This document shows, piece after piece, positions 294-56,178 of a DNA stretch of 64,000 bases. Each line of letters opens with the position of its first letter. Position 1 is the first letter of the stretch. A program made the position numbers and the translations under genes. The stretch is from assembly GCA_964585065.1 (NCBI GenBank), contig CAZPCB010000002.1, positions 68,886-132,885 on the forward strand, given 5' to 3'. The notes under the pieces are model-generated. The model saw only the letters and a program-made list of their open reading frames with translations, had not been told where the DNA came from and did not search any database. Source of the DNA: an uncultured Candidatus Saccharibacteria bacterium. GTDB taxonomy: Bacteria > Patescibacteriota > Minisyncoccia > SW-4-49-11.

Positions 294-2123
294 TTATAAG
301 TTTAATGAGAATGGGTCTGAGTTAGCTTCGTCAGTAACTTGAGCTTTGGCGGCCTGAATCTTGAGTAATTGTTCAGGGTCCGAGGTTATAATCTGATCTT
401 CTCCATATGATGCTACCACCTTGATAGCCGCATGTTTAAGTCCTGCAAAGAATATCCCCTCTCCCACATCTGACTCTAGAAGAAGGAATTTTTCTTCTTC
501 AGTAAGATAAAAGGTATCTTTAATAATATCTATAGAGGCTGGAGATTGTTTCAAGAGAATTTGTATTGATGAGTTGGTCAGAATAGCTTTTCCATATTCT
601 GAGGCGAGGAAATCAGCAATATCCTGAGTAATAGTGGTAAGCCCAAGATAATATTTACGGGCTCTTTTGGCAAGTGAGAAAAGAAAAGAAGCTACCGCTT
701 TGTCCTTCATCATAACCCAAGCTTCATCTACAACAAGAATACGCTTTTTGAGAGTTCTTCGGATCTCTTTCCATATATATTGAGTTACCACAAACATAGC
801 TAAAGGCTGAAGAGCATCCTCCATATCTCGAGTATTGAATACTACTAATTGATTAGCAAAATTAATATTGGTAGGTTCATTTACAAAACCACTAAAGCTC
901 CCAGTAGTATATTTGGATAGTCGAATAGCGAGACTTTCTCCCCCTTCCATATTATTGAGAATATTTTCTAAGTCAGAAAGAGTAGGAATATCTTTATTTT
1001 CATAATTTGGTGACTCAAGACTAATATCTTTGCTCGCATATGTCTCATACAAAGCTCTATCTAATACAGCTTCTTCTTCAGCAAGGAATTTGTCTTTTTC
1101 ATTTTCTCCTTGAAGCATCAGTTTTAACATACTCAAAAGATCCGCAATATTGGATTTGAGTAAGTCGGCGGGATTTTCATCATCGCGAGGTATAGGAAGG
1201 TCAAAAGGATTAATATGCTGATTGGAATTCAGTGATATTTTGATAAATGTCCCTCCCACAGCTTCGGTAAGATAAGAATATTCATTTTCAGGGTCAATAA
1301 CCAGTACATCTACATTGAGCATAAGATGTCTCAAAATTTCAAGTTTAGCTAAATAGCTTTTCCCAGCTCCGGACTTTGCAAAAATAACTTCATTAGCATT
1401 TTCCATAGAAAATCTATCAAAGAGAATAAGACTATTATTATGGCGATTAATTCCATATAAAATCCCTTTATTAGAGGAAATACTAGCTGAAATAAAGGGA
1501 AATGTAGTAGATAGCGGAGATGTATTAAGATTATTGGCAATAGCTAAATCATCTTTGAGAAGAGGAATAGTAGATTGAAATCCTTGCTCGGTTTGGAAAA
1601 GACAAGGCTTGGAATATACCATTTTGGTTTGAAGCATACTGTCTATTTGGGCAATATTTTTCTCTAATTGCGGTAGGCTATCTGCATAAACGGTAATATA
1701 TAATCCAAAGCGGAAAAATCTCTCAGTACCCTGCTGTAATTGATCTCGAAGATTTTCAGCATCCTGATAAGCAGTTTCTACCATAGGGTCTCGAACTAAT
1801 CCCTTTTCTTGCGCAATACTGATTTGCGCTTGAAAGCGTGTTACTTGGGTTCTGAGATTCTTTAAGATAACCCCACTATCCATAGGATACAGGAACATAG
1901 AAATATCCAAGACATAATCAAGGGTAATAAGTGGGCTAAACCATCCGGTTACCAGGAATCGAGGATATGTCATCACAAAAATAGTTCGGGCAAATTGAGA
2001 ACCAATTTGAATATATTTAGGGTCTACCAAAATACTTGCAGGTGCCAAAAGATCCCGAAGAGTATTTTGCCCTTTGAGGAAATCTGCAATTTCTGGAGTA
2101 GTTTGTGCTTGTTTCTTTGCCAT
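294..2123 (-). CDS. virB4: VirB4/TrbE/TraC-like type IV secretion (conjugative transfer) ATPase, C-terminal 609 aa part containing the NTPase domain
   Basis: Walker A FAKSGAGKSYLAK, Walker B-like ILVVDEAWVMM (DEAW typical of VirB4), central PRFLVTGWFSPL segment; architecture places Walker A about 470 aa into the reconstructed 834-aa protein as in VirB4. Confidence 0.7.
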   Translation of the reverse strand: MAKKQAQTTPEIADFLKGQNTLRDLLAPASILVDPKYIQIGSQFARTIFVMTYPRFLVTGWFSPLITLDYVLDISMFLYPMDSGVILKNLRTQVTRFQAQISIAQEKGLVRDPMVETAYQDAENLRDQLQQGTERFFRFGLYITVYADSLPQLEKNIAQIDSMLQTKMVYSKPCLFQTEQGFQSTIPLLKDDLAIANNLNTSPLSTTFPFISASISSNKGILYGINRHNNSLILFDRFSMENANEVIFAKSGAGKSYLAKLEILRHLMLNVDVLVIDPENEYSYLTEAVGGTFIKISLNSNQHINPFDLPIPRDDENPADLLKSNIADLLSMLKLMLQGENEKDKFLAEEEAVLDRALYETYASKDISLESPNYENKDIPTLSDLENILNNMEGGESLAIRLSKYTTGSFSGFVNEPTNINFANQLVVFNTRDMEDALQPLAMFVVTQYIWKEIRRTLKKRILVVDEAWVMMKDKAVASFLFSLAKRARKYYLGLTTITQDIADFLASEYGKAILTNSSIQILLKQSPASIDIIKDTFYLTEEEKFLLLESDVGEGIFFAGLKHAAIKVVASYGEDQIITSDPEQLLKIQAAKAQVTDEANSDPFSLNL

Positions 2124-40128: not shown

Positions 40129-42837
40129 ATGCAAATAGAATACAAACAGCGCAAAGGATTTACGTTAATTGAGATACTTTTGGTAATAGCCTTAATGGGT
40201 ATATTATTAACTACCGTGCTAGTTGCAATTAACCCTAGTAGACAATTAGCACAAGTTCGTAATGCTCAGAGACAAAGTCATATGCAGGCTTTGCAAAAGG
40301 CCTTAGACTTTTATGCTACTAAAAATGAGGGATCATATCCTCCAGGAGTTACAAGTTCTTATCAAGATGTATGTAATACGGGGACTGAAATAGTAGGAGG
40401 AGTAACCAATTGTACGGGTAAATTAGATTTACGTATTCTTGTCCCAACATATATTGTCGGTATTCCAAAAGATTCACAAGCTATTGGTACTAGCTCGGGA
40501 TATTCGGTAGCACTTAATTCATCTAATAACGGTATTAGTTTAACTAGCGATAAAGCAGAATTAGGATCTACTATCGCTATTAATAAAATAATACAATCAA
40601 GCTATTCAGGATATATAGATTCTAGCTTGGATTCAGATAAACCGGTTGGTTTTGATAATGCTGTGAATGTTGTTTTGCAGCAAAGCAATGGTAAGTTAAT
40701 TGTAGGGGGTTATTTTACTAGTTATAAAGGAGTACCAGCAAATTCTATAATACGCTTAAATAGTGATGGAAGTATAGATAACACTTTTAATGTGGGAACG
40801 GGATTTGATTCTGGTATTAGTACAGTAGTAAGGCAAAGTGATGGAAAATTCGTCATTGGGGGACAATTTGGTAATTATCAAGGTGTGTCAGCAACTAGAA
40901 TAATACGTCTTAATAGTGATGGGAGCAGAGACAATACATTCAATATGGGGACTGGTTTTGCTAGTAATTACTTTGATGGTGCTGTGACTAACATTTTACT
41001 ACAAAGTGATGGAAAATTAGTAGTAGCAGGATATTTTTGGACATACCAAGGAGTATCGGCAAATGGAATAATACGTCTTAATAGTGATGGGAGCAGAGAC
41101 AATACATTTAATATGGGGACTGGTTTTGATAGTGGAACTAATAGTATTATACTACAAAATGATGGTAAGGTTTTAGTAACAGGCTCTGAATTTACTAGTT
41201 ATCAAGGTGTTTCAGCCAGTAGAATAATACGTCTTAATAGTAATGGGAGTAGAGACAATACATTTAATATGGGTGCAGGATTTGATAATTATGTAACTAA
41301 AGTAATACAACAAAGTGATGGAAAATTTGTCATTGGTGGAGGCTTTACCACCTATCAAGGAGTATCCGCAAATAGAATAATACGTCTTAATAGTGATGGG
41401 AGCAGAGATAATACATTTAATATCGGGACCGGTTTTAATGGAAATGGTACCTTCTCAGGATTTTGGGACGGTGGGATAAGTAGTATTGTGCAGCAAAGTG
41501 ATGGGAAATTGGTCATTGGTGGAGGATTTACTAGTTATCAAGGTGTTTCTTCGGGTACTAGCATCATACGTCTTAATAGTGATGGGAGTCGAGACAATAC
41601 ATTTAATATAGGTACTGGTATAGATACTTATGTAAGGATAGTTATGCAGCAGAGTGATGGTCAAATAATTGTAGGGGGAGACTTTACGACTTATAAAGAA
41701 GTCCCAGCAAATAAAATAATACGTCTTAATAGTGATGGGAGTCGAGATAGTAGTTTTAATATAGGGCTTGGACTAAATGGTGCTGTGAATACTGTTATAC
41801 AGCAAAGTGATGGTAAGCTAGTGATAGGAGGAGCATTTACTGGATATAGGGAAGTATCTTCAAAGAGAATAATGCGTTTAAATAGTGATGGAAGTCGGGA
41901 CAGTAGTTTTAATATCGGGACTGGTTTTGATGGGGGAGATGTTTATATCGTTGTACAGCAGAGTGATGGTAAATTAATGGTAGGGGGCTATTTCAGTAGT
42001 TATCAAGGAAGCTCAGCAAATAATATAATACGCTTAAACGCAGATGGAACTCGAGATAATACTTTTAATGTGGGAACCGGCTTCAGCTGTGCTTGTGGTA
42101 GTGGTGTAGGATCTATTGTACAACAAGCAAGTGGTAAATTAATCGTAGTGGGAAGCTTTACTACGTATCAAGGAGGGTCAGTAACAAATATAATACGCCT
42201 TAATAGTGATGGAAGTAGAGATAATACTTTTAATGTGCATGCTGGGTTGAATGCTGGGGCGCAGCAAATAATACAGCAAAGTGATGGTAAATTAATAGTG
42301 GTAGGACTCTTTACTCAGTATTTGGGAGTTTCAGCTAATAAAATAATACGTCTTAATAGTGATGGAAGTAGAGATAATACTTTTAATGTGGGAACGGGAT
42401 TTGATTCTGGTATATCTACGTTAATGCAACAAAATGATGGAAAATTAGTCATAGCAGGTAACTTTAGTACATATCAAGAATTGGCTGTAAATGTCATAAT
42501 ACGTTTAAATAGTGATGGGAGTCGGGATAGTGGTTTTAATTTTGTAAGTTCACCATTAAATTCTACACTAATGACTATTGCACAGCAAAGTGATGGTAAA
42601 TTAGTGATGGGAGGAAGCTTTTCGGGATCACAAGGAAATAGAATAATGCGCTTAAATAGTAATGGGAGTATTGATAATACCTTTAATACAGGTACTGGAT
42701 TTAATCCAGAAGATACTATTGGTTGGAATTGGGTATCTAGCATTATAAAACAAAGTGATGGCCAATTAGTTGTTGGTGGAACATTTACTAATTATAAAAA
42801 TCAACCAGCAGGATATCTGATCAGATTGAATCCATAA
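40129..42837 (+). CDS. Giant type IV pilin-like protein (leader MQIEYKQRKG/FTLIEI) fused to about 20 tandem delta-60-like beta-propeller repeats
   Basis: Class III signal peptide; repeated unit IIRLNSDGSRDNTFNxGTGF...QQSDGKLVIGGxFTxYQGVSAN about every 50-60 aa, matching delta-60 repeat consensus (DGSLDTSFG...QSDGKIVVAG). Confidence 0.6.
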   Translation: MQIEYKQRKGFTLIEILLVIALMGILLTTVLVAINPSRQLAQVRNAQRQSHMQALQKALDFYATKNEGSYPPGVTSSYQDVCNTGTEIVGGVTNCTGKLDLRILVPTYIVGIPKDSQAIGTSSGYSVALNSSNNGISLTSDKAELGSTIAINKIIQSSYSGYIDSSLDSDKPVGFDNAVNVVLQQSNGKLIVGGYFTSYKGVPANSIIRLNSDGSIDNTFNVGTGFDSGISTVVRQSDGKFVIGGQFGNYQGVSATRIIRLNSDGSRDNTFNMGTGFASNYFDGAVTNILLQSDGKLVVAGYFWTYQGVSANGIIRLNSDGSRDNTFNMGTGFDSGTNSIILQNDGKVLVTGSEFTSYQGVSASRIIRLNSNGSRDNTFNMGAGFDNYVTKVIQQSDGKFVIGGGFTTYQGVSANRIIRLNSDGSRDNTFNIGTGFNGNGTFSGFWDGGISSIVQQSDGKLVIGGGFTSYQGVSSGTSIIRLNSDGSRDNTFNIGTGIDTYVRIVMQQSDGQIIVGGDFTTYKEVPANKIIRLNSDGSRDSSFNIGLGLNGAVNTVIQQSDGKLVIGGAFTGYREVSSKRIMRLNSDGSRDSSFNIGTGFDGGDVYIVVQQSDGKLMVGGYFSSYQGSSANNIIRLNADGTRDNTFNVGTGFSCACGSGVGSIVQQASGKLIVVGSFTTYQGGSVTNIIRLNSDGSRDNTFNVHAGLNAGAQQIIQQSDGKLIVVGLFTQYLGVSANKIIRLNSDGSRDNTFNVGTGFDSGISTLMQQNDGKLVIAGNFSTYQELAVNVIIRLNSDGSRDSGFNFVSSPLNSTLMTIAQQSDGKLVMGGSFSGSQGNRIMRLNSNGSIDNTFNTGTGFNPEDTIGWNWVSSIIKQSDGQLVVGGTFTNYKNQPAGYLIRLNP

Positions 42838-42906: not shown

Positions 42907-42932
42907 AAACCCTTCCTATGAAGGAAGGGTTA
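42907..42932 (-). terminator. Rho-independent terminator of the long minus-strand operon (CCCTTCC-TATGA-GGAAGGG; T-run on minus strand)
   Basis: 7-bp GC stem; minus-strand reading followed by TTTTTCTCTTT. Confidence 0.6.
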
Positions 42933-43199
42933 GCGAGAAAAAATCTCATCTACATCATTAAGTTGTTGAGGAGTTAAACTCTCTTGTTTTATTTGCATTA
43001 AGGTGCAAAGACGAATAATATCTGGTCTTTGAGGTTCTAATGGGCTTGGTATATTGGGATTGAGGCTAACTTTGTCTACTATTTTGTCCCATTCTACCAT
43101 TCTTAGTTTATAAGCCTTTTGTAATAAATCAGCCCTATGTACAGGGTCACTCTGTAACATCATTGTGTGGCTAAAATCAGTACGCATAAGAATGAACAA
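42930..43199 (-). CDS. Hypothetical protein (89 aa), last ORF of minus-strand operon
   Basis: ORF bounded by upstream gene and terminator; no motif. Confidence 0.3.
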   Translation of the reverse strand: MFILMRTDFSHTMMLQSDPVHRADLLQKAYKLRMVEWDKIVDKVSLNPNIPSPLEPQRPDIIRLCTLMQIKQESLTPQQLNDVDEIFSR

Positions 43200-43251
43200 G
43201 AATCACATCGCATATAAGTATGCCATAGACTTTTTAATTGTTCAAGACTTA

Positions 43252-44697
43252 TTAATTATTAAGATTAATAAGAGGGGTTCGAATAGGGAAGCTAAAGTAT
43301 TGAATAATATTGTCAGTATTAGTAATAACCGTCTTAGCATCATTACGTAATTTAATACTAGCTGTGCTAATTACATCATCAAGTAGTATATAAGAATTAA
43401 TGGAGCCTCTGGTATCGGACTCTACTACTTTTAAGGTATTATCTTCGATGAATAAAACATATTCTGAATTTGGTTCCCATAATTCAGATTGAACAATAGG
43501 TTTCTCACTAGTATATAATGTATCAAAATCTCCCTCTATACGAGATTTATACCCTTCAATAGTGTCAAGATATAGGATAGAGAGGCTATTTTTGGTCTTT
43601 AGGAGAGCTTTTTTTGAATCTAGGCTAAATTGTATATCTGTAATCTCAGAGTCTGAAATTTGGTTAAACCCTGGGGTTTTATCGCCAAGTGATTTCAGCC
43701 AAGTATGTTGCTTATCATCAAGAATAATAATATGACCTTGGCTTGGACTAATAAAAATTTTATCTATAATAATATCAGGCGTATTGATAGCAGTGGATTT
43801 CTTAGTGTCAAGATTATAAATACGAATAATATCTATAGTACTATCTTTATCAGAAGTATAGTAAATAGTGTTGTCTACAAAGTCACTATGTGTTATATCT
43901 GCTACAAGAACATCAGAACGGGTACTAAATTGTAGAGTAAGTTCATATAGTGCCCCTCCCTGTATGAATAATAATGTATCAGTATCCAGATTAACAATTT
44001 TAACGGGACTTGCATTAATATCAGTGATAGGGAATTGACTGGTAATATTGGTCAAAATAGGATTAGTATCAATATTAGTTATAACAAAATATTGAAATAC
44101 ATTATTGAGGGAAGTCTTGAAACTAAGAATATTTCCTGAACTATCCCAAGTAAAATCTGAATAATCTTGATTATCTAAACCTCCAAGCGCAATACTATCA
44201 GTAAGACGTTTACGCACTTTGGTATCAAGATTAAGAATCCAAAGTCCAGATTCCTTGGGATTATACGAGGTATATAGTATTGAGGAAGCATCAGGTACTC
44301 TTTGAATATTGCGAGCTGTTGAAAGATCGCTAAATTTTTCTAATTCAGGTTTTTCTGGGAAAAGAGTTACATCACTAATTAATTGTACAAAAGAAGGTTG
44401 TATCGATATTTTTTTAGCCCATGACTGATATCCTGGTAGAGATAATACTACATCTAAATCTTGTGGAGCAAGACCAACTTTCAAGAGTGGGCTTTTGGAT
44501 TCTAATTTGTCATTAATAGTAATTTCATAAGCAATTTTAGTATTGATTCGAACTCCTCCAGTAGAGGTGAGAATAGGTGCATCATTATCATCACGACTAA
44601 GTCTATAGCCCATGCCATATAAGGTGAGTATAGGAGCTATAATAAAGAAAAGAATTATGAGAGTACGGGCAAAGATTTTTTGTATATTTCTATTCAT
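43252..44697 (-). CDS. Secreted/membrane-anchored protein with PEGA-like domain and PD40/TolB-like beta-propeller repeats
   Basis: N-terminal TM; PEGA-like LKVGLAPQDLDVVLSLPGYQSW; repeated SxLYTSYNPKESGLWILNLDT-type strands. Confidence 0.35.
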   Translation of the reverse strand: MNRNIQKIFARTLIILFFIIAPILTLYGMGYRLSRDDNDAPILTSTGGVRINTKIAYEITINDKLESKSPLLKVGLAPQDLDVVLSLPGYQSWAKKISIQPSFVQLISDVTLFPEKPELEKFSDLSTARNIQRVPDASSILYTSYNPKESGLWILNLDTKVRKRLTDSIALGGLDNQDYSDFTWDSSGNILSFKTSLNNVFQYFVITNIDTNPILTNITSQFPITDINASPVKIVNLDTDTLLFIQGGALYELTLQFSTRSDVLVADITHSDFVDNTIYYTSDKDSTIDIIRIYNLDTKKSTAINTPDIIIDKIFISPSQGHIIILDDKQHTWLKSLGDKTPGFNQISDSEITDIQFSLDSKKALLKTKNSLSILYLDTIEGYKSRIEGDFDTLYTSEKPIVQSELWEPNSEYVLFIEDNTLKVVESDTRGSINSYILLDDVISTASIKLRNDAKTVITNTDNIIQYFSFPIRTPLINLNN

Positions 44698-44706
44698 ATA
44701 TATGTA

Positions 44707-45120
44707 TTATGCTTCATCTAAGGCTTTATTGGCAAGAGCATCAGCTTGTTTATTGAATTCTCGGCGAATATGTATAAAGTTTACAGATTTAAATTTAATT
44801 CTCAAATTCCAAATTTGAATAAAAGCTTTTTGAATTGCTTCATCTTTGAGCTCATAAATTCCTGTTAATTGTTTTTGGGCGAGTTCCGAGTCTAAATAGA
44901 CTTCAACTGCATATTTTTTAGTATTGACCTTGCCAACAAGAGATTTTGTTTTTTCAAGAGCAACCACAATAGCCTGATATTCAGCGTAATTATTGGTCGC
45001 AATACCAAGAGTCTGATGATGGGTTTTAATACTCCCATCTGGTAACTCAATTACTACTCCAAGAGAAGCTGGACCTGGATTTCCACGAGAAGCACCATCT
45101 GTATGTATTTTGATTGTCAT
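44707..45120 (-). CDS. rnhA: Ribonuclease HI
   Basis: IHTDGASRGNPGPASLGVVIE, YAEYQAIVVALE, catalytic DEDD layout, 137 aa. Confidence 0.85.
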   Translation of the reverse strand: MTIKIHTDGASRGNPGPASLGVVIELPDGSIKTHHQTLGIATNNYAEYQAIVVALEKTKSLVGKVNTKKYAVEVYLDSELAQKQLTGIYELKDEAIQKAFIQIWNLRIKFKSVNFIHIRREFNKQADALANKALDEA

Positions 45121-45171
45121 ATAAGATATAGGTTGATATTAGTATAGCATAAATATATTGAGGGGACAATT

Positions 45172-47001
45172 TTATGCTAGGGGAAGATTTGAGGGCGGAG
45201 AAAGTGTTGGATTAGCTTGTAATTCATTATCCAATGTATAATTGGGGTATAATTGTTCCCACAGCTCTTGGGGAGAATTATTTGGTGTTTTTAAATTCCT
45301 AAGATCAAGTAATCCAAATTGAATCATTTCTCTTGCAGTCTCAAGATTAATTCCAGATACTAATATGAGATTTTTTAGTTCAGGATATTTGAGAATTTCT
45401 TCTATTACAGCTTTCTGTTCCAAATATACCGTATCTTTGGTATCAGAAATCTGGGTATCTGTATTGTCAAAAGAAGAATTCCTGAATAATCTAGTTGAGC
45501 CGCTAAGTGCTGTTTTTATATATTCCTTGAATTTAGATGGACTTACTTGTTTCGATTGTAGAGAGCGAATACTTTCATAATATGTTTTTACACAATCTAT
45601 ATAAGTACCCCCAGATTGTTTGGTAGCCATGGCTCTCAGGTAATTAGGTTGAGGAGGGCTTTCATATCCAAATAATTCTTGAGATATTTGATCTTGATAA
45701 TACATAGCCCCACCTTCTTGGAATAATTCAGCTCTATCTCCGGCAATTTGACTGGAATGTGTATAGAGAGGTAAACCAATTTGGGCAGTATTTTCTCTTT
45801 GAAGAATATGAATTATTTCATGAGTAGCTGCCTTGGTAATTATTTTCTGAATATCCATTTCGGTAGCAGGGATTAATAATGTTTTACTTTGACTATCTAT
45901 TGCAAGAGTGTCTTTACCCGGTCTAATATAGCATCTCCATTTATTATCTGCCGGGTTTATATTTTTGGTTACTTGTTCAGCATCGGCGGGATATTCGCTT
46001 AATAGGTCATAGCTTGCGAGAATTTGGTCTAAATATTGTTTTGCCATTTCAGGAGTGATATTCTTCTCTTCTAATTTTTCTTGGTCTAGGCCTTTTTGTA
46101 AGAGGATTTGAGGCTTTTCTTGATTAATTGATTTGTTTAATTCAGCAATATGATCAGCCATTGTTAATAGATGATTATCTACTTGATTATAATTACCCGT
46201 ATCAGTATCAAGTGTACTTACTCCATATATAAATTTATCTAATTTGTATGGGGGTTTATGTGGAGTATGGGATTCTTCGCTCCGTAAAAATGTTTCTTGT
46301 TCTTTAGTTTCTGCAATGATGACATTAATTCTTTTAATTAATGCTTGTACGCGAAATATTTTAGCATGTATTAAAGCTTTACTTATATCGGTAGTGTCAG
46401 AAGCCTCTTCGGCATATAAGTCAGATCGCTTTTGTTTTAATTCTTGCCTTATTGCTTCTAACCCTTCAATTTTTGCTGTTAAGTTAGCAGGATATTGAAT
46501 ATAGGTGAGTTTTTCTGGGTTTTCAATATTCTCTATATCAAGTTCTCCCGTATCAGGATGAATATGTTGAGATAAAGTCTCTACCATAGTATCAGTATTC
46601 CAATCCGTACTCATTTTTACTAAATCTGTTATGATTTTGGGTTTTAATGTTCTCAGAATTGCAATATTTTCCCTAATATCAATGTCTCCTTCAAGGGATA
46701 CAAATTCAGGAATTTCTTTTAAAATAGCCTGACCCTCTGATGTATCAAAATACTCGGGATATAAAACTTTTTTACCAGTTGCTAACTTATAGTATTCTGC
46801 TAGTTTTTCTACAAAAGGATTCTCAAATTCTATTAAGTTCTGCTTTTCCTCCTCAGAAAGTATTTCCTTTTTTCTTTCACCAGATTCATATTGAGCTATT
46901 TCATATAATAATATTTGAGCTGAATAGGATGGACGCTCTGGATATAATTGAGGTTTATGTTCAGATTTAGGTTCAGTATTCTCAGAAGATTCTATCGACA
47001 T
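45172..47001 (-). CDS. DUF1704/MATCAP-like gluzincin metallopeptidase homolog (HExxH + QEGGA motif)
   Basis: ATHEIIHILQ (HExxH) followed about 30 aa later by AELFQEGGAMYY resembling the QEGLA motif of TIGR02421/DUF1704. Confidence 0.45.
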   Translation of the reverse strand: MSIESSENTEPKSEHKPQLYPERPSYSAQILLYEIAQYESGERKKEILSEEEKQNLIEFENPFVEKLAEYYKLATGKKVLYPEYFDTSEGQAILKEIPEFVSLEGDIDIRENIAILRTLKPKIITDLVKMSTDWNTDTMVETLSQHIHPDTGELDIENIENPEKLTYIQYPANLTAKIEGLEAIRQELKQKRSDLYAEEASDTTDISKALIHAKIFRVQALIKRINVIIAETKEQETFLRSEESHTPHKPPYKLDKFIYGVSTLDTDTGNYNQVDNHLLTMADHIAELNKSINQEKPQILLQKGLDQEKLEEKNITPEMAKQYLDQILASYDLLSEYPADAEQVTKNINPADNKWRCYIRPGKDTLAIDSQSKTLLIPATEMDIQKIITKAATHEIIHILQRENTAQIGLPLYTHSSQIAGDRAELFQEGGAMYYQDQISQELFGYESPPQPNYLRAMATKQSGGTYIDCVKTYYESIRSLQSKQVSPSKFKEYIKTALSGSTRLFRNSSFDNTDTQISDTKDTVYLEQKAVIEEILKYPELKNLILVSGINLETAREMIQFGLLDLRNLKTPNNSPQELWEQLYPNYTLDNELQANPTLSPPSNLPLA

Positions 47002-47055
47002 TTTGATATAATGACTATTTTATATTATTATATCATGGAGATATTAAATACAAAA

Positions 47056-48477
47056 TTATTTTCTAGGATCAATGATAAATCGCTTTAGAGAGTTTTCCCC
47101 AAGAATTATAGGGTATTTGAGCCCAGTACGAGTAATAATATTAGCTTTTGTTTCAAATATTTCATCACCTACTTGAATTTTAATATAAATAATAGGTCTA
47201 TAGGAATATCCATGACTACTATGAACCTTTGAAACTCCAACTATGTCAGGATGCTCTTCAATTTTTTGCCATATTTTATCTTTGGATAAAGTATTTATCT
47301 CGTCTAAAGTAAGTACAGGTTTAATATGAAATGTTTGCATATATGTTAATACATCCTTATATCCCAAGGCAATAGCTAGGCTCTCATCAATAGATGTTTT
47401 TCCCGCACCAGTATCAATTTTTGCTTGTACTTTTTGCTGCTGATCATCTTTTCCAAATAAGGTAATTTCCTCAATAAGCCCAATCACTTGTCGTCCAGTA
47501 ATTTCCTCAATTTCTTCTTCAATTTCTCCTCCGAACAAATCTTTTGCCAGTCTAATAGCTCTTTTTACTGTTTTTACTTTAAGACCTTTTACTTTTTGTA
47601 ATCTTTCTTTGAGTGGTGCGAGATTAGCAATTTGAATAGCGAGTCCTGGACGGGCATTAGCCTCTAATACTACAGGTCCTGCATCACGGTCAATGGCAAT
47701 ATCTACTCCCGTAAACCCTAATTTAGTGACATCAGCAGTACGAATCGCAATATCCAATATAGTATTCCAATACGGTATACGTATACCAGACAGACTAGTT
47801 TCTGTTCCTGGTATGGTATCGATAAATTTTTCTCGCATAATAGCATTGGTAGTAACTCCTGTTGCCATATCAATACCGATACCAATTCCGCCTAGATGAA
47901 GATTGGCTTTACCATCAGATTCCTTGGTAGGAATTCGTATCATTGCCATTACAGGAATACGATTGAATACAATCACGCGAATATCAGGAATTCCTTTATA
48001 GGCTAAGTGTTTGAATGATTTATTAATCTTAATTCTCTCCTCAAAGAAGGCCACATCGGGGCTATTGGTACGAGAATACGTACCATCAAGAATATTACTA
48101 ATATGATTATGTATCATGGTCTCACTCAGTTTTACCCCCTTGGTTTTCACCCATTGACGCTCTCCATCGCCGGTTCTTTTTTTGTCCTCTCCAAATATTA
48201 CCACAATTCCTTCCCCTCCAAATCCAGCAGTTGGTTTTAATACAAAACTTTTGGGAAGTTTATTATAATCAAAATTATTGAGTTTATCATATGATTGAAC
48301 AGTTGCTATGAGTTTTGGGGTAGGAATATTATTTTTTTGTAATTCTTTTTTGAATTTAATTTTATTATCTACTAATTTAACCCATTTGCTATAATTGTAT
48401 GGTTTAATATAAGAAAGATTGCGGGCATTCATCCCGAGTATTTTTTGACTAAATACAAATGATTCTAGCCAATTCAT
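47056..48477 (-). CDS. RimK-like ATP-grasp ligase (alpha-L-glutamate-ligase-related, GMNxRN N-terminus) fused to C-terminal retropepsin-like (RimB-type) aspartyl protease domain
   Basis: LGMNARNLSYIKPYN N-term; ATP-grasp core DIRVIVFNRIPVMAMIRIP...GKANLHLGG; C-terminal AKIDTGAGKTSID (DTGA) aspartyl protease motif. Confidence 0.6.
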   Translation of the reverse strand: MNWLESFVFSQKILGMNARNLSYIKPYNYSKWVKLVDNKIKFKKELQKNNIPTPKLIATVQSYDKLNNFDYNKLPKSFVLKPTAGFGGEGIVVIFGEDKKRTGDGERQWVKTKGVKLSETMIHNHISNILDGTYSRTNSPDVAFFEERIKINKSFKHLAYKGIPDIRVIVFNRIPVMAMIRIPTKESDGKANLHLGGIGIGIDMATGVTTNAIMREKFIDTIPGTETSLSGIRIPYWNTILDIAIRTADVTKLGFTGVDIAIDRDAGPVVLEANARPGLAIQIANLAPLKERLQKVKGLKVKTVKRAIRLAKDLFGGEIEEEIEEITGRQVIGLIEEITLFGKDDQQQKVQAKIDTGAGKTSIDESLAIALGYKDVLTYMQTFHIKPVLTLDEINTLSKDKIWQKIEEHPDIVGVSKVHSSHGYSYRPIIYIKIQVGDEIFETKANIITRTGLKYPIILGENSLKRFIIDPRK

Positions 48478-48480
48478 AGC

Positions 48481-49122
48481 CTATTGATTGCTAATAATTT
48501 TACGGAATCGGATATATTCAGAAATTCGGAGCCCCTCATAGCGTCCAAGGAATATAATTCCTGCAAATATAATCAAAATAATCCAAGGATTATAGAATAC
48601 TAAATCTCTTAAACTTGTAGTTGCTATGATAAGATTTCCAATAGCAGCAAGAATTAATGTCTCTACTGAGAGGATAACAGCAGTACGATACCCTTTTTCC
48701 ATTTGAGCATTGATGAATTTTTCTACCAAGGTGATAATAATCAAAATCTGATAAATCGAAGCCTGTACAAATACCGTGCTATCAGAGAATATTCCCCATA
48801 CTAGGCTCAAAAACATAGATAAGGCAGTAATAGAAAGTATCAAAGCCATTTTGGGTAAATACAAAATACGAATTTTGCGGAGTAAATATCTGACAATAGA
48901 AGCAATTACGAGAGATACAATAAAAATACTCACTCCATATTTGAAGCCAATTTGTGTTAAAGCAAAGGTGATAATAAGCGGTGTATAAATACCAAAAGCC
49001 TTAATCCCTACAATTTGTCGGGCTGCTACGATAAATCCTGCCATAATCGGAAACATCAAAAGAATGTCGATGGTTTCACGTGGCACACCATTATCCATAA
49101 GATATTGGAAGAAGATATCCAT
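48481..49122 (-). CDS. Seven-transmembrane protein (7TM component commonly paired with RimK-like ATP-grasp systems; no transglutaminase domain)
   Basis: Seven predicted TM helices over 213 aa; first gene of the minus-strand operon. Confidence 0.45.
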   Translation of the reverse strand: MDIFFQYLMDNGVPRETIDILLMFPIMAGFIVAARQIVGIKAFGIYTPLIITFALTQIGFKYGVSIFIVSLVIASIVRYLLRKIRILYLPKMALILSITALSMFLSLVWGIFSDSTVFVQASIYQILIIITLVEKFINAQMEKGYRTAVILSVETLILAAIGNLIIATTSLRDLVFYNPWIILIIFAGIIFLGRYEGLRISEYIRFRKIISNQ

Positions 49123-51277: not shown

Positions 51278-51586
51278 TTATTGGCGAAGGCCATAATTGA
51301 GAGGTGGAAATCCTCTCTCAGAATGATTAGCCTCTACAATGTAGAGAACTGGATTTGAGCTATTTGTCTCAAGAGGCCAAAGACCAATATAGCAACTACC
51401 ATCACCTTGTATCAGGTTATCTCCAGATCGAGAAAAAGTCTGAATTGGAGATGCCAATGGATTCGCAATGATATGTAAATGAGGGGGTAGATGTTTGTTG
51501 GTGAATTGTTGTGTATATAGCTGAGCTTCTTTGAGAAGCTCTAACCATTCAGGATAAATTTTGAAATCCACATAAATGGGATTCAT
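51278..51586 (-). CDS. Hypothetical protein (102 aa) on opposite strand inside the suf cluster
   Basis: ORF fills 445-bp gap between sufD and sufS; no motif. Confidence 0.25.
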   Translation of the reverse strand: MNPIYVDFKIYPEWLELLKEAQLYTQQFTNKHLPPHLHIIANPLASPIQTFSRSGDNLIQGDGSCYIGLWPLETNSSNPVLYIVEANHSERGFPPLNYGLRQ

Positions 51587-54348: not shown

Positions 54349-56178
54349 ATGGTAAAACAGTTAAATAAAAACCCAAAGCTGTTTATATTGCTTGCATCGT
54401 TCGTCGCCATAGGTTTGATATCATTTGCGGGTACCTTTAATGTTGTGCATGGGAGGCAACAACAGCAACAACAGCAGCAGCAAACATCTAAATGTAATAA
54501 GTGTGGCCAATGTACAAATTGTTTGGCTTCAATCCAAAACAACTGGAGTAGGTTCCTTTGCGTGATTTTTCCACAATTCTGCTCGAGTTTAACTACATGT
54601 ACAGCTCCTGCTGTACAGCCATCCCAACCTTTTGTATGTACAGATGTACCAGTTTCTTACGTAGAAAGACTTTCACAATATAATATTAATGGTCTAGATG
54701 CTTCAATTTCAAGTAATGGTAAATATACAGTAAAGGGTATGACTACACATGGATCTTATAGCTGTGATACTATATTAAAAGCTATACTTGATTATAACAC
54801 TCCTCCTCCGACTAGTACATTTTCCGGGTACCAGTCTCTCTGGAACCGCCCTGTTCAACCTTCTACTCCTAAGTATAATGTTTGTGCCTATCCGAGTAGT
54901 GTCAGTGAACAGCGTCTAGAAAGAGTAAATTGGTCCTTTAATAATATGACAGCTGTCAAAGATTGTGGTAATGTAAAAGGAGTATATGCAGAATGCAATA
55001 ATGGAGCTGTTAATTTTGGTGCTTATCCAGGTTTTACAACAATAGGTGCAATTGCTAGTCCTTATCAAGCATTTACAGATCATAGCACTATAGTACAAAA
55101 TGCAGCCCCTAATCAATATAGATGGGGTGGTTTGTATCAGTATGGTATAAGCTCTGACAATGCAAAGCCAGGACCATATTCTTTTTACAGCACATCTTAT
55201 AATTATGAAACATTAAAATTAGCATTTAACTATGAAATGGTATACAGTAGTCTGCAACAAGCTGGTCCCTGTTGGTCTCCATTTCCATCTTTCAGAGAAT
55301 GCCATAGAGTACATTACTTTACCTATACTCCAAGAGTGCAACAGCCCAATATTACTCTAAACTCATATCTAATTAAGCATAGAGATAGACCAAGTCAACT
55401 GATTTATCGAAATAGTCCAATTAGAAAATCTTGGCAAATAGAGAATGCTAATTCTGGAAGTTGTAATATAGAAACGAAAAATTCTTCGGGAGAAGTTATA
55501 CCATTTCTTTCTAAAAGCGGATTGAATATTGACTTTAAACAAGGTAAGCAAATTGTAGACTTCTTACCTATTAATGGTGCAACAGGACAATATCTTGAAA
55601 AGGTAGATCAGAATGCAGATTATACAATTGGATATGATCCAAATAGAATACAGCCCGGTGTTTATAAGAGTATATTAACATGTAGTCTTAGTATAAACTG
55701 CTCATCAGGTTCGGGTACAGATGATTGTAAGAGAATCTCTCCAGGTAATCCTTATAGTAGCCCAATATCAGTTTCTGTTGATCAAGACTTTACAATATCT
55801 CCAGATCAAATAGTTACTTTGGCAGCGTCAGCTAAGCCAACTATCGTTTATAATAAATTTAGAAAAACTAAAATACTAGCTAATACAAAAGGTGCAAACG
55901 TGAATGATAAGCATAAGTATACACTTACAAAAATCCCTATAGGGTATAAGTTGACTTCATCTGCGACAATAGATAAGGTGGCTGATGCCTCAGGTACTAC
56001 TAACGCCTTCTGGGATGTTGAATTAGTTGTTAATCCCCAAACAAATGGAAGTGATGCAATAATAGGTGCATCAGAATTTGTTGTAGAAATGACTGATGAG
56101 CCATATGATAATCTTTATACGGCTAAAGCAAAAGTAACTTATCTTGGCAATAGAGATGTAAGAGAAGTTGCTAAATAA
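54349..56178 (+). CDS. Hypothetical secreted Cys-rich protein with N-terminal anchor and polyQ tract (609 aa)
   Basis: TM/signal FILLASFVAIGLISFAG, then Q9 tract, CNKCGQCTNC and many further Cys. Confidence 0.4.
   Translation: MVKQLNKNPKLFILLASFVAIGLISFAGTFNVVHGRQQQQQQQQQTSKCNKCGQCTNCLASIQNNWSRFLCVIFPQFCSSLTTCTAPAVQPSQPFVCTDVPVSYVERLSQYNINGLDASISSNGKYTVKGMTTHGSYSCDTILKAILDYNTPPPTSTFSGYQSLWNRPVQPSTPKYNVCAYPSSVSEQRLERVNWSFNNMTAVKDCGNVKGVYAECNNGAVNFGAYPGFTTIGAIASPYQAFTDHSTIVQNAAPNQYRWGGLYQYGISSDNAKPGPYSFYSTSYNYETLKLAFNYEMVYSSLQQAGPCWSPFPSFRECHRVHYFTYTPRVQQPNITLNSYLIKHRDRPSQLIYRNSPIRKSWQIENANSGSCNIETKNSSGEVIPFLSKSGLNIDFKQGKQIVDFLPINGATGQYLEKVDQNADYTIGYDPNRIQPGVYKSILTCSLSINCSSGSGTDDCKRISPGNPYSSPISVSVDQDFTISPDQIVTLAASAKPTIVYNKFRKTKILANTKGANVNDKHKYTLTKIPIGYKLTSSATIDKVADASGTTNAFWDVELVVNPQTNGSDAIIGASEFVVEMTDEPYDNLYTAKAKVTYLGNRDVREVAK
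54457..54483 (+). repeat. (CAA/CAG)9 trinucleotide tract encoding Q9
   Basis: caacaacagcaacaacagcagcagcaa read directly. Confidence 0.9.

Follow-up and report, generated by a model that had tools for sequence, protein, structure and literature searches.

We propose, with moderate confidence, that the 7TM protein and the 473-aa ligase-protease fusion encoded at this locus of a tiny-genome bacterium are the Patescibacteria (CPR) version of Rlo, a system in which acidic chains would be built and trimmed at the membrane, here with the participation of the downstream 609-aa enzyme. Because a membrane protein, a ligase-protease fusion and an adjoining relative of MATCAP occur together, the locus appears to be a compact variant of the described Rlo system rather than an uncharacterised one. 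The preliminary description of this DNA was not aware of any characterised bacterial representative of the triad, but such representatives exist in RimK/RimB (reviewed in PMC12239564) and in the exact retropepsin/7TM/TIGR02291 triad rloABC of P. aeruginosa (PMC12239564); its build-and-trim logic is reasonable. In P. aeruginosa, a single operon comprises rloA (retropepsin), rloB (7TM plus inactive transglutaminase) and rloC (ATP-grasp); RloA cuts runs of at least eight Glu, and loss of rloB or rloC suppresses loss of the proteases; 96% of RloB hits are in Proteobacteria (Lormand et al., mBio 2025, PMC12239564).

The window, i.e. the whole stretch of 64,000 nucleotides that was analyzed, contains all six co-directional minus-strand ORFs of the preliminary description where it had placed them (Table 1), separated by intergenic gaps of 3, 54, 51, 9 and 52 nt in order from the 7TM gene. 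The motifs it had named (GMNARN, GKANLHLGG, DTGA, HExxH in the form HEIIH, and QEGGA) were all located, the positions of HEIIH and QEGGA being verified by translation, and its terminator corresponds to a terminator-like hairpin past the 89-aa ORF (42931-42908, with a stem of 10 bp and a T run behind it).

Table 1. Features of the locus, in positions of the window.
Feature	Positions	Strand	Family or motif
RloB-like 7TM membrane protein, 213 aa	48481-49122	-	PF14402
ATP-grasp ligase-retropepsin fusion, 473 aa	47056-48477	-	PF14397/TIGR02291 + PF05618
ATP-grasp amidoligase domain of fusion, aa 11-300	47578-48447	-	TIGR02291/PF14397 type
Acidic inter-domain segment of fusion, DLFGGEIEEEIEEIT	47497-47541	-	conserved pattern
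Retropepsin-like aspartic peptidase domain of fusion, aa 328-471	47065-47496	-	PF05618; DTGA at 47404-47415
Divergent long-form MATCAP/DUF1704-superfamily metallopeptidase, 609 aa ("M609" family; putative)	45172-47001	-	hhalign
MATCAP-like catalytic region of 609-aa protein, aa 223-551	45349-46335	-	HEIIH 45808-45822; QEGGA 45706-45720
RNase H, 137 aa	44707-45120	-	RNase_H, RVT_3
481-aa membrane-anchored protein	43252-44697	-	PEGA + propeller-like matches, sub-threshold
89-aa ORF	42930-43199	-	no family match

Of the profiles that the preliminary description had proposed searching, PF14402 matches the 7TM protein (E 7.7e-23; 81.7 bits, cut-off 25), PF05618 matches the protease part of the fusion (2.2e-9), TIGR02291 matches its ligase part (3.2e-84) at 282.6 bits, slightly below the cut-off of 314.2, and PF08014 finds no match. 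Together with PF14397 (1.5e-69), these matches bear out the reading of the 473-aa protein as a RimK-related ATP-grasp ligase fused to a retropepsin, and the structure prediction suggested for it was run as well (AF2; pLDDT 85.8, pTM 0.64). More than 5000 homologs of the fusion were found at E<1e-10, the best 120 of which are all fused forms of ~450-500 aa from Patescibacteria, and at least 588 GTDB species genomes contain a relative. Across 33 diverged homologs, DTGA and many ATP-grasp positions are invariant, the latter taken to include the catalytic ones.

The fusion shares with RimK/RimB an ATP-grasp alpha-L-glutamate ligase fold and a retropepsin that, in RimB, is cytoplasmic, cuts poly-Glu and binds RimK (PMC12239564); here this physical association would be made permanent. 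The 473-aa protein has no signal peptide, and it is therefore predicted to be cytoplasmic, as RimB is. A fused-form RimK/RimB system for S6 glutamylation could account for these features, but the RimK models score far under their cut-offs (TIGR00768, 55 vs 143.4 bits; NF007764, 23 vs 331 bits), as does the RimB model NF052261 (19 vs 200 bits), whereas the best-scoring ATP-grasp models are of RloC type (TIGR02291, PF14397); moreover, RimK has no membrane partner and the rim locus no counterpart of the invariant 7TM protein, nor did we see any sign of S6 as the target, so that we consider this reading highly improbable. The LysX/ArgX-LysW ligases, which extend a small protein at its C-terminal Glu, offer another likeness, but the LysX model reaches only 22.9 bits on the fusion (cut-off 275.6), and neither a LysW-like carrier nor lysine or arginine biosynthesis genes lie near the module.

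The 7TM assignment likewise holds, since the PF14402 match is accompanied by ~7 hydrophobic segments in a hydropathy scan. The NCBIfam RloB model NF052267 matches only over positions 312-506 of 508 (66.8 bits, cut-off 900), and the 213-aa protein is the 7TM module alone, without the inactive transglutaminase domain. Its gene lies 3 nt from the fusion gene, and a homolog stands immediately upstream of the fusion in 78/78 related loci, which cover Moranii-, Falkow-, Kerfeld-, Jackson- and Dojkabacteria as well as Paceibacterota; this pair is the sole invariant part of the locus. The 7TM proteins of the Falkow-, Kerfeld- and Jacksonbacteria loci are longer (517-554 aa), with PKD domains confirmed in one case (L007).

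The likeness to RloABC consists in the same three families in one locus (TIGR02291/PF14397 for RloC, PF14402 for RloB, PF05618 for RloA), a 7TM gene that adjoins the ligase gene, and a conserved DTG active site. The differences are several: the order is 7TM then ligase-protease, the periplasmic transglutaminase domain of RloB is missing, a MATCAP-like peptidase is added, to which relatives add 1-4 ATP-grasp ligases, and the host belongs to Patescibacteria. The retropepsin here is at the C-terminus of a predicted cytoplasmic ligase whereas RloA is secreted, so that the two systems may differ in how they handle their product, a point that counts against our reading.

The preliminary description had listed the six genes as one operon, and the co-directional genes, gaps of 3-54 nt and single terminator-like hairpin past the last ORF would suit a six-gene functional unit with the 7TM gene first and the 89-aa ORF last. 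We find such a unit scarcely credible, because neighborhood conservation falls into three grades: the 7TM-fusion pair is invariant, a MATCAP-like gene is a recurrent accessory (13/63 loci), and the remaining three genes are lineage synteny outside the system. The RNase H identification stands (RNase_H, 7e-12; RVT_3 also matched), but the gene is a neighbor and not part of the system, being found beside the module solely in Paceibacterota-type synteny (L001-L005, L008, L011, L012, L090-L097, L101, L103) and missing from the at least 70 other loci. The 481-aa gene, which in that lineage comes after RNase H, is probably also a neighbor; it has homologs no more than two genes away from the module in two other lineages only (L027, L081), and the two genes remain together even in L012, which lacks the MATCAP-like gene, and in L008, where that gene is replaced. 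As for its proposed PEGA and beta-propeller domains, faint matches to both were seen, but PEGA is sub-threshold (E 0.028) and the propeller signal weak. The 89-aa ORF, which has no family match in profile searches, is not conserved: its one homolog is in L001, from the same organism, and together with a 902-aa pilin-like gene it occupies the place where relatives have rpsI directly after the 481-aa gene.

At a threshold as lax as E<10, the 609-aa protein still matches nothing in Pfam or NCBIfam. Its assignment to DUF1704/MATCAP thus fails the Pfam/TIGRFAM test set beforehand as decisive but gains support from fold and profile-profile evidence: in hhalign, residues 223-544 pair with genuine PF08014 proteins at 97.4% probability (E 1.3e-11), and those proteins match human MATCAP at E 1.6e-8. 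The metal-binding helix motif of MATCAP/TMCP1-2 (KIAA0895L, KIAA0895) and of PF08014/TIGR02421 "QEGLA" proteins is aligned (HEII-H with HEIGTH), as are the downstream (Q/E)EG(G/L)A glutamate (QEGGA with EEGVA) and the TKDxVY(L/R)E motif (TKDTVYLE with TKDIVYRE); at least 90% of 31 homologs retain H394, E395, H398 and E429, and those PF08014 proteins occupy the same position in the gene order of other Patescibacteria. To judge from its sequence, the protein is a divergent long-form member of the superfamily. Unlike MATCAP/QEGLA proteins it matches neither PF08014 nor TIGR02421, its HExxH lacks one residue of the family's HExxxH (retained in more distant M609 members), it carries an additional ~220-residue N-terminal helical region, and it is 13-14% identical to human MATCAP; the shorter motif counts against our reading. 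Eukaryotic MATCAP acts against TTL/TTLL ATP-grasp enzymes, an opposition to which the genomic linkage of the 609-aa protein with ATP-grasp ligases can be likened, although its substrate, unlike that of MATCAP, cannot be tubulin.

In the 13/63 loci where a MATCAP-like gene (of one type or the other) accompanies the core pair, it is found 1-4 kb past the fusion in the fusion's own orientation and with differing flanking genes; none was found elsewhere within the fetched flanks of the 80 genome loci (L010-L089), and this linkage favors our reading. Against it, 50/63 loci have no MATCAP-like gene, the core pair stands without one in L012, and the distant M609 members (24-29% identity; L006, L099, L100) have no adjoining ligase-protease module. 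The relatives' cluster carries 1-4 further ATP-grasp ligases, and in all 13 MATCAP-like-bearing loci among the 80 at least one separates the MATCAP-like gene from the fusion. The homolog of the 609-aa gene comes directly after a RimK-like gene in L002 and L004 (gap 2-20 nt), and the 606-aa homolog of L002, L004, L090 and L095 directly after two RimK-family genes, with a reverse-strand ATP-grasp gene between it and the fusion. This genome has lost the extra RimK-like ligases, no remnants of which were detected by tblastn in the whole window, and carries a larger Patescibacteria cluster in its most reduced form. Because the relatives' MATCAP-like gene sits behind the ligases that are lost here, the pairing of the fusion with the 609-aa enzyme is a putative one in this genome; of the proposed ligase-7TM-MATCAP association, the ligase-7TM link is the part observed throughout.

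The same arrangement could mean that the peptidase is functionally unrelated to the fusion, its true partners having been the deleted RimK-like or cyanophycin-synthetase-like ligases, and is now an orphan adjoining an Rlo-like pair. A Photobacterium QEGLA protein adjoins, and is co-induced with, a GshB-like ATP-grasp (PMC10308900), and the 54 nt in front of the 609-aa gene contain an extended -10-like match, TGATATAAT, so that this gene may have its own transcription; promoter-like matches are not enriched overall (31 found vs 33.9 expected from shuffled sequence). We nevertheless regard an orphan peptidase as unlikely: among close relatives the extra ligases dwindle from 3 to none and the 609-aa gene is kept intact, two genotypes without an extra ligase (window/L001 and L103, 85% identical) conserve its catalytic residues, the MATCAP-like gene is always downstream of the 7TM-fusion pair across lineages that differ in their flanks, and the accessory ligases belong to the fusion's own cluster.

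Returning to the Rlo-like reading, the domain identities, conserved active sites and gene linkage are what the analysis shows; the function is most likely the ATP-dependent building and endo- and exo-trimming of acidic (oligo-glutamate) chains at the membrane. Which amino acid and acceptor are used, what the 7TM protein does and whether the 609-aa enzyme acts on the fusion's product we infer as follows. The ATP-grasp domain, at the inner membrane face next to its 7TM partner, would use ATP to add amino acids to a carboxyl group, most likely alpha-linked L-glutamate by analogy with RimK, giving an acidic oligopeptide on an acceptor. The fused retropepsin would cleave inside the chain and limit its length, as RimB does for RimK and RloA for runs of at least eight Glu. 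The 609-aa metallocarboxypeptidase would most likely strip residues singly from the free C-terminus, as MATCAP/TMCP do on glutamate chains, polyglutamate being shortened by MATCAP-family enzymes (PMC10499314). The C-terminal protein tag of the preliminary description is possible as the product, but as one of several.

Among the other products would be a peptide on a cell-wall or envelope precursor, or a free polymer (poly-alpha-glutamate), built or modified by the ligases, exported or anchored by the 7TM protein and edited by the peptidases. In most Patescibacteria loci the cluster continues directly into a class A PBP (~840-960 aa), and GT4 glycosyltransferases, YdjC-like proteins, a Mur-ligase-like protein and a Ddl-like ligase are often among its products; because glycosyltransferase, YdjC-like and class A PBP genes so often follow, a cell-envelope role is pointed to. 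The name of PF14397 reflects an association with sugar transfer. In Pseudomonas, rlo mutations cause defects of cell shape, of hypo-osmotic tolerance and of beta-lactam sensitivity, and the authors suspect peptidoglycan homeostasis (PMC12239564); in another bacterium a RloB homolog influences the production of membrane vesicles (PMC12096838). Envelope biosynthesis instead of protein tagging is a possibility that we take seriously without favoring it, since PBP adjacency could be synteny without common function, in this window suf genes and RNase H border the module and its cluster is free of envelope genes, and the closest solved structures to the fusion's ATP-grasp all work on protein C-termini.

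The segment between the two domains of the fusion keeps the pattern [DEN]LFGGE[IV][EQ].E[IVL]E[EDG][ILM][ST]G in all 33 aligned fusions, down to ~50% overall identity. One may speculate that it is a self-processing site or a pseudo-substrate; in the AF2 model it is predicted, at lower confidence, to be a helix.

The core of the locus is a pair of adjacent genes encoding a 7TM protein and an ATP-grasp ligase fused to a retropepsin. The 213-aa 7TM protein matches PF14402 (7TM_transglut; E 7.7e-23, 81.7 bits against a cut-off of 25), and the NCBIfam RloB model NF052267 aligns with it at positions 312-506 of 508 only (66.8 bits against 900); since only the C-terminal 7TM part of this model is aligned, the window protein is without the inactive transglutaminase domain. 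The 7TM gene lies 3 nt from the ligase gene. The ligase part of the 473-aa fusion covers the full PF14397 model (E 1.5e-69, 234.7 bits against 31.4), and its best NCBIfam match is TIGR02291 (E 3.2e-84), at 282.6 bits a little under the equivalog cut-off of 314.2. The protease part matches PF05618 at residues 328-471 (E 2.2e-9, 37.8 bits against 27) and has the D-T/S-G catalytic motif and the retropepsin fold. The DTGA motif and many ATP-grasp positions, which we take to include the catalytic residues, are invariant in 33 homologs down to ~50% identity; the motifs quoted in the preliminary description were all found in the translated ORFs. Judged by eye, the N-terminus of the fusion, MNWLESFVFSQKILGMNARN, is no signal peptide.

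An association of ATP-grasp, 7TM-transglutaminase and aspartyl-protease genes was reportedly predicted from comparative genomics by Iyer et al. in 2009. In P. aeruginosa, a single operon carries rloA (secreted retropepsin), rloB (7TM plus inactive transglutaminase) and rloC (ATP-grasp); RloA cuts runs of at least 8 glutamates, and deletion of rloB or rloC suppresses the defects of protease loss (Lormand et al., mBio 2025, PMC12239564). The earlier suggestion that such a triad is uncharacterised in bacteria is therefore superseded by the description of rloABC (PMC12239564), which makes the window pair a variant of a described system. Three of five testable Rlo features are present, namely the RloC-type ATP-grasp, the adjacent PF14402 7TM partner and the retropepsin motif with its fold; the window pair differs in lacking the transglutaminase domain, the 7TM protein being just 213 aa, and in lacking a separate secreted retropepsin, the protease here being fused to a cytoplasmic ligase. 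The RloA, RloA2 and RloA3 models score only 27-37 bits on the fusion, far under their cut-offs of 210-280, and the host belongs to the Patescibacteria, whereas RloB matches are 96% in Proteobacteria (PMC12239564).

With no signal peptide, the fused protease is RimB-like in location. RimB, the retropepsin of the RimK/RimB system, associates with its ligase and shortens the poly-Glu chain of ribosomal protein S6 (reviewed in PMC12239564), and the shared location would suit a reading of the fusion as an S6-specific RimK system. The sequence models speak against this: the fusion falls under the cut-offs of RimK TIGR00768 (55 bits against 143.4), NF007764 (23.3 against 331) and RimB NF052261 (19.2 against 200), and because these models are unmatched we do not regard it as a RimK/RimB member and consider an S6-specific role highly improbable.

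The pair is very widespread. Fusion homologs at E<1e-10 number more than 5000, of which the best 120 are all fused and all from Patescibacteria, and a relative of the fusion occurs in 588 or more GTDB species genomes, so that Rlo, essentially proteobacterial as described in 2025, now has a very widespread Patescibacteria form in which protease and cytoplasmic ligase are one polypeptide and no transglutaminase domain is needed. We fetched 80 genome loci, called their ORFs and labelled these with HMMs built for this analysis. A 7TM homolog is immediately upstream of the fusion in all 78 loci with enough upstream sequence, and one to four extra ATP-grasp genes follow the fusion in 57 of 63, the first usually cyanophycin-synthetase/GshB-like and the others of the RimK family. 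After the ligases, the cluster commonly enters GT4 glycosyltransferase (~340 aa), YdjC-like (~210 aa) or Mur-ligase-like genes together with a class A PBP (~840-960 aa), which follows the ligase cluster in most Patescibacteria loci (L007-L089; L014 has a Mur-ligase-like protein); these neighbours hint at a connection between the module and the cell envelope. The fused form constrains models of Rlo in two ways: the chain has to be accessible from the cytoplasmic side, and conservation of the membrane partner is limited to its 7TM module. The pair also provides a minimal two-gene version of Rlo for reconstitution.

Loci of Falkow-, Kerfeld- and Jacksonbacteria (L007, L048, L064, L082, L087-L089) encode a longer 7TM protein of 517-554 aa, and in L007 its extra N-terminal part carries PKD domains at the place of the inactive transglutaminase domain of proteobacterial RloB. 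Judging from these sequences, the extracytoplasmic module of the 7TM protein seems to be interchangeable or dispensable. Many loci with the typical Patescibacteria gene order (L014, L017, L020, L026, L027, L042, L047 and others) come from records titled 'uncultured Bdellovibrionales', 'Micavibrio', 'Candidatus Bathyarchaeia archaeon' or 'Candidatus Fimivivens', which are probably mislabelled or misbinned metagenome-assembled genomes.

The 609-aa protein encoded downstream of the fusion had been put forward as a DUF1704/MATCAP-like metallopeptidase. Curated models give this call no backing, and by the profile check proposed along with it the call fails: neither PF08014 at E<10 nor TIGR02421 at E<0.1 matches the protein, Pfam and NCBIfam searches with it and with all 31 homologs were empty or at chance level (PF08014 in 0 of 31 family members), and PDB sequence searches, whether by the protein itself or by the profile of its family, fared likewise. 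The call nevertheless stands on three independent lines, namely fold, genomic position and profile-profile homology. The predicted model (pLDDT 86.3, pTM 0.84) has the MATCAP fold; a Foldseek search with it returned human MATCAP as the best solved match, the top four all being MATCAP (E 1e-3). Proteins of 430-470 aa with a HEIGTH motif occupy the slot from the ligases to the PBP in Moraniibacteriota loci and also in L010, the nearest of the GTDB species genomes; six of the seven analysed pass the PF08014 cut-off (E 1e-19 to 1e-31), and the seventh, in L042, gives E 2.6e-14. Aligned by hhalign, the 609-aa family profile and that of the seven slot proteins are homologous at 97.4% probability (E 1.3e-11, 285 columns), pairing HEII-H with HEIGTH, QEGGA with EEGVA and TKDTVYLE with TKDIVYRE, and the slot-protein profile matches human MATCAP at E 1.6e-8.

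In the window protein and those closest to it the metal-binding motif is HEIIH, an HExxH made one residue shorter than HExxxH by a deletion, whereas distant family members keep HExxxH (HEIEGH or HEIGTH in the alignment), as do PF08014 proteins. The third metal ligand is present, QEGGA (E429) being aligned with EEGVA of PF08014 proteins; the EEG motif of the MATCAP family has been described (PMC10499314). H394, E395, H398 and E429 are kept in at least 90% of homologs. Compared with MATCAP, then, the protein departs in curated-model match and HExxxH and agrees in fold, profile-profile homology and third ligand. An exhaustive profile search returned 468 clusters at 50% identity, mostly of ~600-620 aa, with an extra N-terminal helical region of ~220 residues relative to canonical members; this unannotated family (~470 clusters at 50% identity) is hereby defined as a long-form branch of the MATCAP superfamily and could join the MATCAP clan in annotation. 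The window holds two further ORFs of 609 aa, which we considered as paralogs and found to be unrelated: one is a VirB4/TraG-like P-loop ATPase (PF19044, E 5.8e-23, with a CagE_TrbE_VirB match), and the other, downstream of the suf genes, is without a Pfam match and is followed by the 2 kb of lowest G+C in the window (26.6%).

The expectation that all of these genes would be co-conserved in relatives holds for the 7TM-fusion pair and only in part for the peptidase. Of 63 loci, 13 have a MATCAP-like gene of one type or the other at 1-4 kb downstream of the fusion and co-directional with it; it is absent from the other 50, having been lost in L012, and none was found elsewhere in the flanks of the 80 genome loci (L010-L089). 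All 13 MATCAP-containing loci of the 63-locus count carry at least one extra ligase, and their flanks differ by lineage (suf genes and RNase H versus ruvC and PBP). In close relatives of the window, the extra genes between the fusion and the 609-aa homolog are a reverse-strand cyanophycin-synthetase/GshB-like ligase plus two of the RimK family, or a single 451-452-aa ATP-grasp_3. The 609-aa homolog is intact beside three extra ligases (L002, L004, L090, L095), two or three (L091-L093, L097), one reverse-strand 451-452-aa ATP-grasp (L101, L102; L094 has a same-sized unclassified ORF) and none (the window, whose organism is also that of L001, and L103). By tblastn, the window shows no remnant of the additional ATP-grasp genes of its relatives, and from their absence we view the window as the end point of a reductive series. 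The slot is also filled by DUF3541 (~327-330 aa; PF12060, E 1e-31), in four loci, among them L008, L010 and L011; L010 has DUF3541 and a canonical MATCAP gene together, and DUF3541 has no informative PDB relative.

The description that best suits the peptidase is that of an accessory recurring with the ligase cluster, and its pairing with the fusion in this genome is inferred. The 609-aa homolog in L002 and L004 is tightly coupled to a RimK-like gene and not to the fusion, and distant family members (24-29% identity) are in unrelated gene contexts, observations that would suit a reading of the peptidase as an orphan; this reading strikes us as unlikely. An independent case of ATP-grasp and MATCAP-like pairing is found in Photobacterium damselae, where low salinity induces a QEGLA-motif (DUF1704) gene 27-fold, the GshB-like ATP-grasp gene next to it 38-fold and rimK 52-fold (PMC10308900, Table 2), echoing the hypo-osmotic phenotype of rlo mutants. 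Our literature searches found no paper combining two or more of DUF1704, MATCAP and ATP-grasp, nothing relevant on Patescibacteria and RimK, and no description of the Patescibacteria fused form, of the long-form MATCAP branch or of a link between ATP-grasp ligase and MATCAP-like genes.

The domain identities, the conserved active sites and the linkage of the genes are direct observations, and homology suggests how the parts would act. The ligase would add alpha-linked L-glutamate, or another amino acid, to a carboxylate via an acyl-phosphate intermediate; the fused retropepsin, which would need to dimerise, would cut within the acidic chain; the MATCAP-like enzyme would nibble the C-terminal end of the chain, as eukaryotic members of its family take Tyr and Glu off C-termini and trim polyglutamate chains (PMC10499314); and the 7TM protein may serve to anchor or regulate the ligase or to export the product. 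Taken generally, it is this build-and-trim reading towards which we lean, by a modest degree. The acceptor could be a protein C-terminus, which is what the nearest ligase structures suggest; the Pseudomonas phenotypes, like the PBP, glycosyltransferase and Mur-ligase-like neighbours, suggest that it could instead be an envelope precursor or a free polymer. A version with an envelope product overlaps the build-and-trim reading, and we put it forward tentatively. The fusion also has an acidic inter-domain segment, DLFGGEIEEEIEEIT (aa 313-327), which is invariant in the same 33 fusions (consensus DLFGGEIEEE[IVL]E[ED]) and as conserved as the active sites, while the fusions overall are only ~50% identical; lying beside a protease with poly-Glu-cutting relatives, it could be a self-processing site or a pseudo-substrate.

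MATCAP-like peptidases recur beside bacterial ATP-grasp ligases, which bears on the origin of the tubulin tyrosination/glutamylation cycle. At its most ambitious, the build-and-trim reading becomes a complete and self-contained Patescibacteria 'glutamylation code' module, with the RloC-type ligase and accessory RimK-like ligases as writers, the fused retropepsin as endo-eraser and the MATCAP-like carboxypeptidase as exo-eraser, all acting under 7TM control at the C-terminal end of a protein of the membrane or envelope, and with the recurring ATP-grasp/MATCAP linkage of bacteria as the forerunner of the TTL/TTLL-MATCAP tubulin cycle in eukaryotes; this proposal is speculative, and we think it quite doubtful.

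Positions of features in the window and in related loci (L-numbers), each in the coordinates of its own sequence
Feature	Sequence	Position	Strand
VirB4/TraG-like ATPase, 609 aa	window	294-2123	-
Pilin-like protein, 902 aa	window	40129-42837	+
Terminator-like hairpin	window	42931-42908	
MATCAP-like protein, 609 aa	window	45172-47001	-
Ligase-retropepsin fusion, 473 aa	window	47056-48477	-
Acidic inter-domain segment of the fusion	window	47497-47541	-
7TM protein, 213 aa	window	48481-49122	-
ORF of 102 aa	window	51278-51586	-
ORF of 609 aa downstream of suf genes	window	54349-56178	+
Lowest G+C	window	56001-58000	
Extra-ligase site	L002	5233-7980	
Extra-ligase site	L004	5241-7998	
Extra-ligase site	L101	4593-5948	
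Extra-ligase site	L102	2960-4318	
DUF3541 gene	L008	9309-10292	

The six co-directional minus-strand ORFs of the locus lie at the positions first noted, encode 213, 473, 609, 137 (RNase H), 481 and 89 aa and are separated by gaps of 3, 54, 51, 9 and 52 nt; G+C in the window is ~35%. A terminator-like hairpin past the last ORF agrees with the terminator proposed at this end. Promoter-like matches in the region (31, against 33.9 expected in shuffled sequence) show no excess, so the scan was dropped as a guide to operon structure; with matches at the shuffled level and an extended -10-like string, TGATATAAT, in the 54-nt gap upstream of the 609-aa gene, sequence does not decide whether the locus is a single transcription unit. 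Rfam and tRNA scans found nothing inside the region, and a defence-system reading was dropped as PADLOC models gave no meaningful match. The window has its nearest relatives among metagenome-assembled genomes of Paceibacterota and further Patescibacteria.

RNase H and the 481-aa gene follow the module in the synteny of one lineage only, running on into rpsI-rplM, and are kept with or without the peptidase; we treat RNase H, the 481-aa protein and the 89-aa ORF as neighbours and not components. The PEGA and beta-propeller domains earlier assigned to the 481-aa protein have sub-threshold matches only. The 89-aa ORF has no homolog outside the source organism. It shares the interval from rpsI to the 481-aa gene, empty in relatives, with a 902-aa pilin-like gene, so that the two look like a lineage-specific insertion; in the 902-aa protein, a type IV pilin methylation motif at the N-terminus precedes 14 DUF5122 beta-propeller repeats (E 2.4e-183). 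An ORF of 102 aa without a family match separates sufD from the cysteine desulfurase gene, and a similar-sized ORF (102 or 108 aa) adjoins sufD in L001 and L002.
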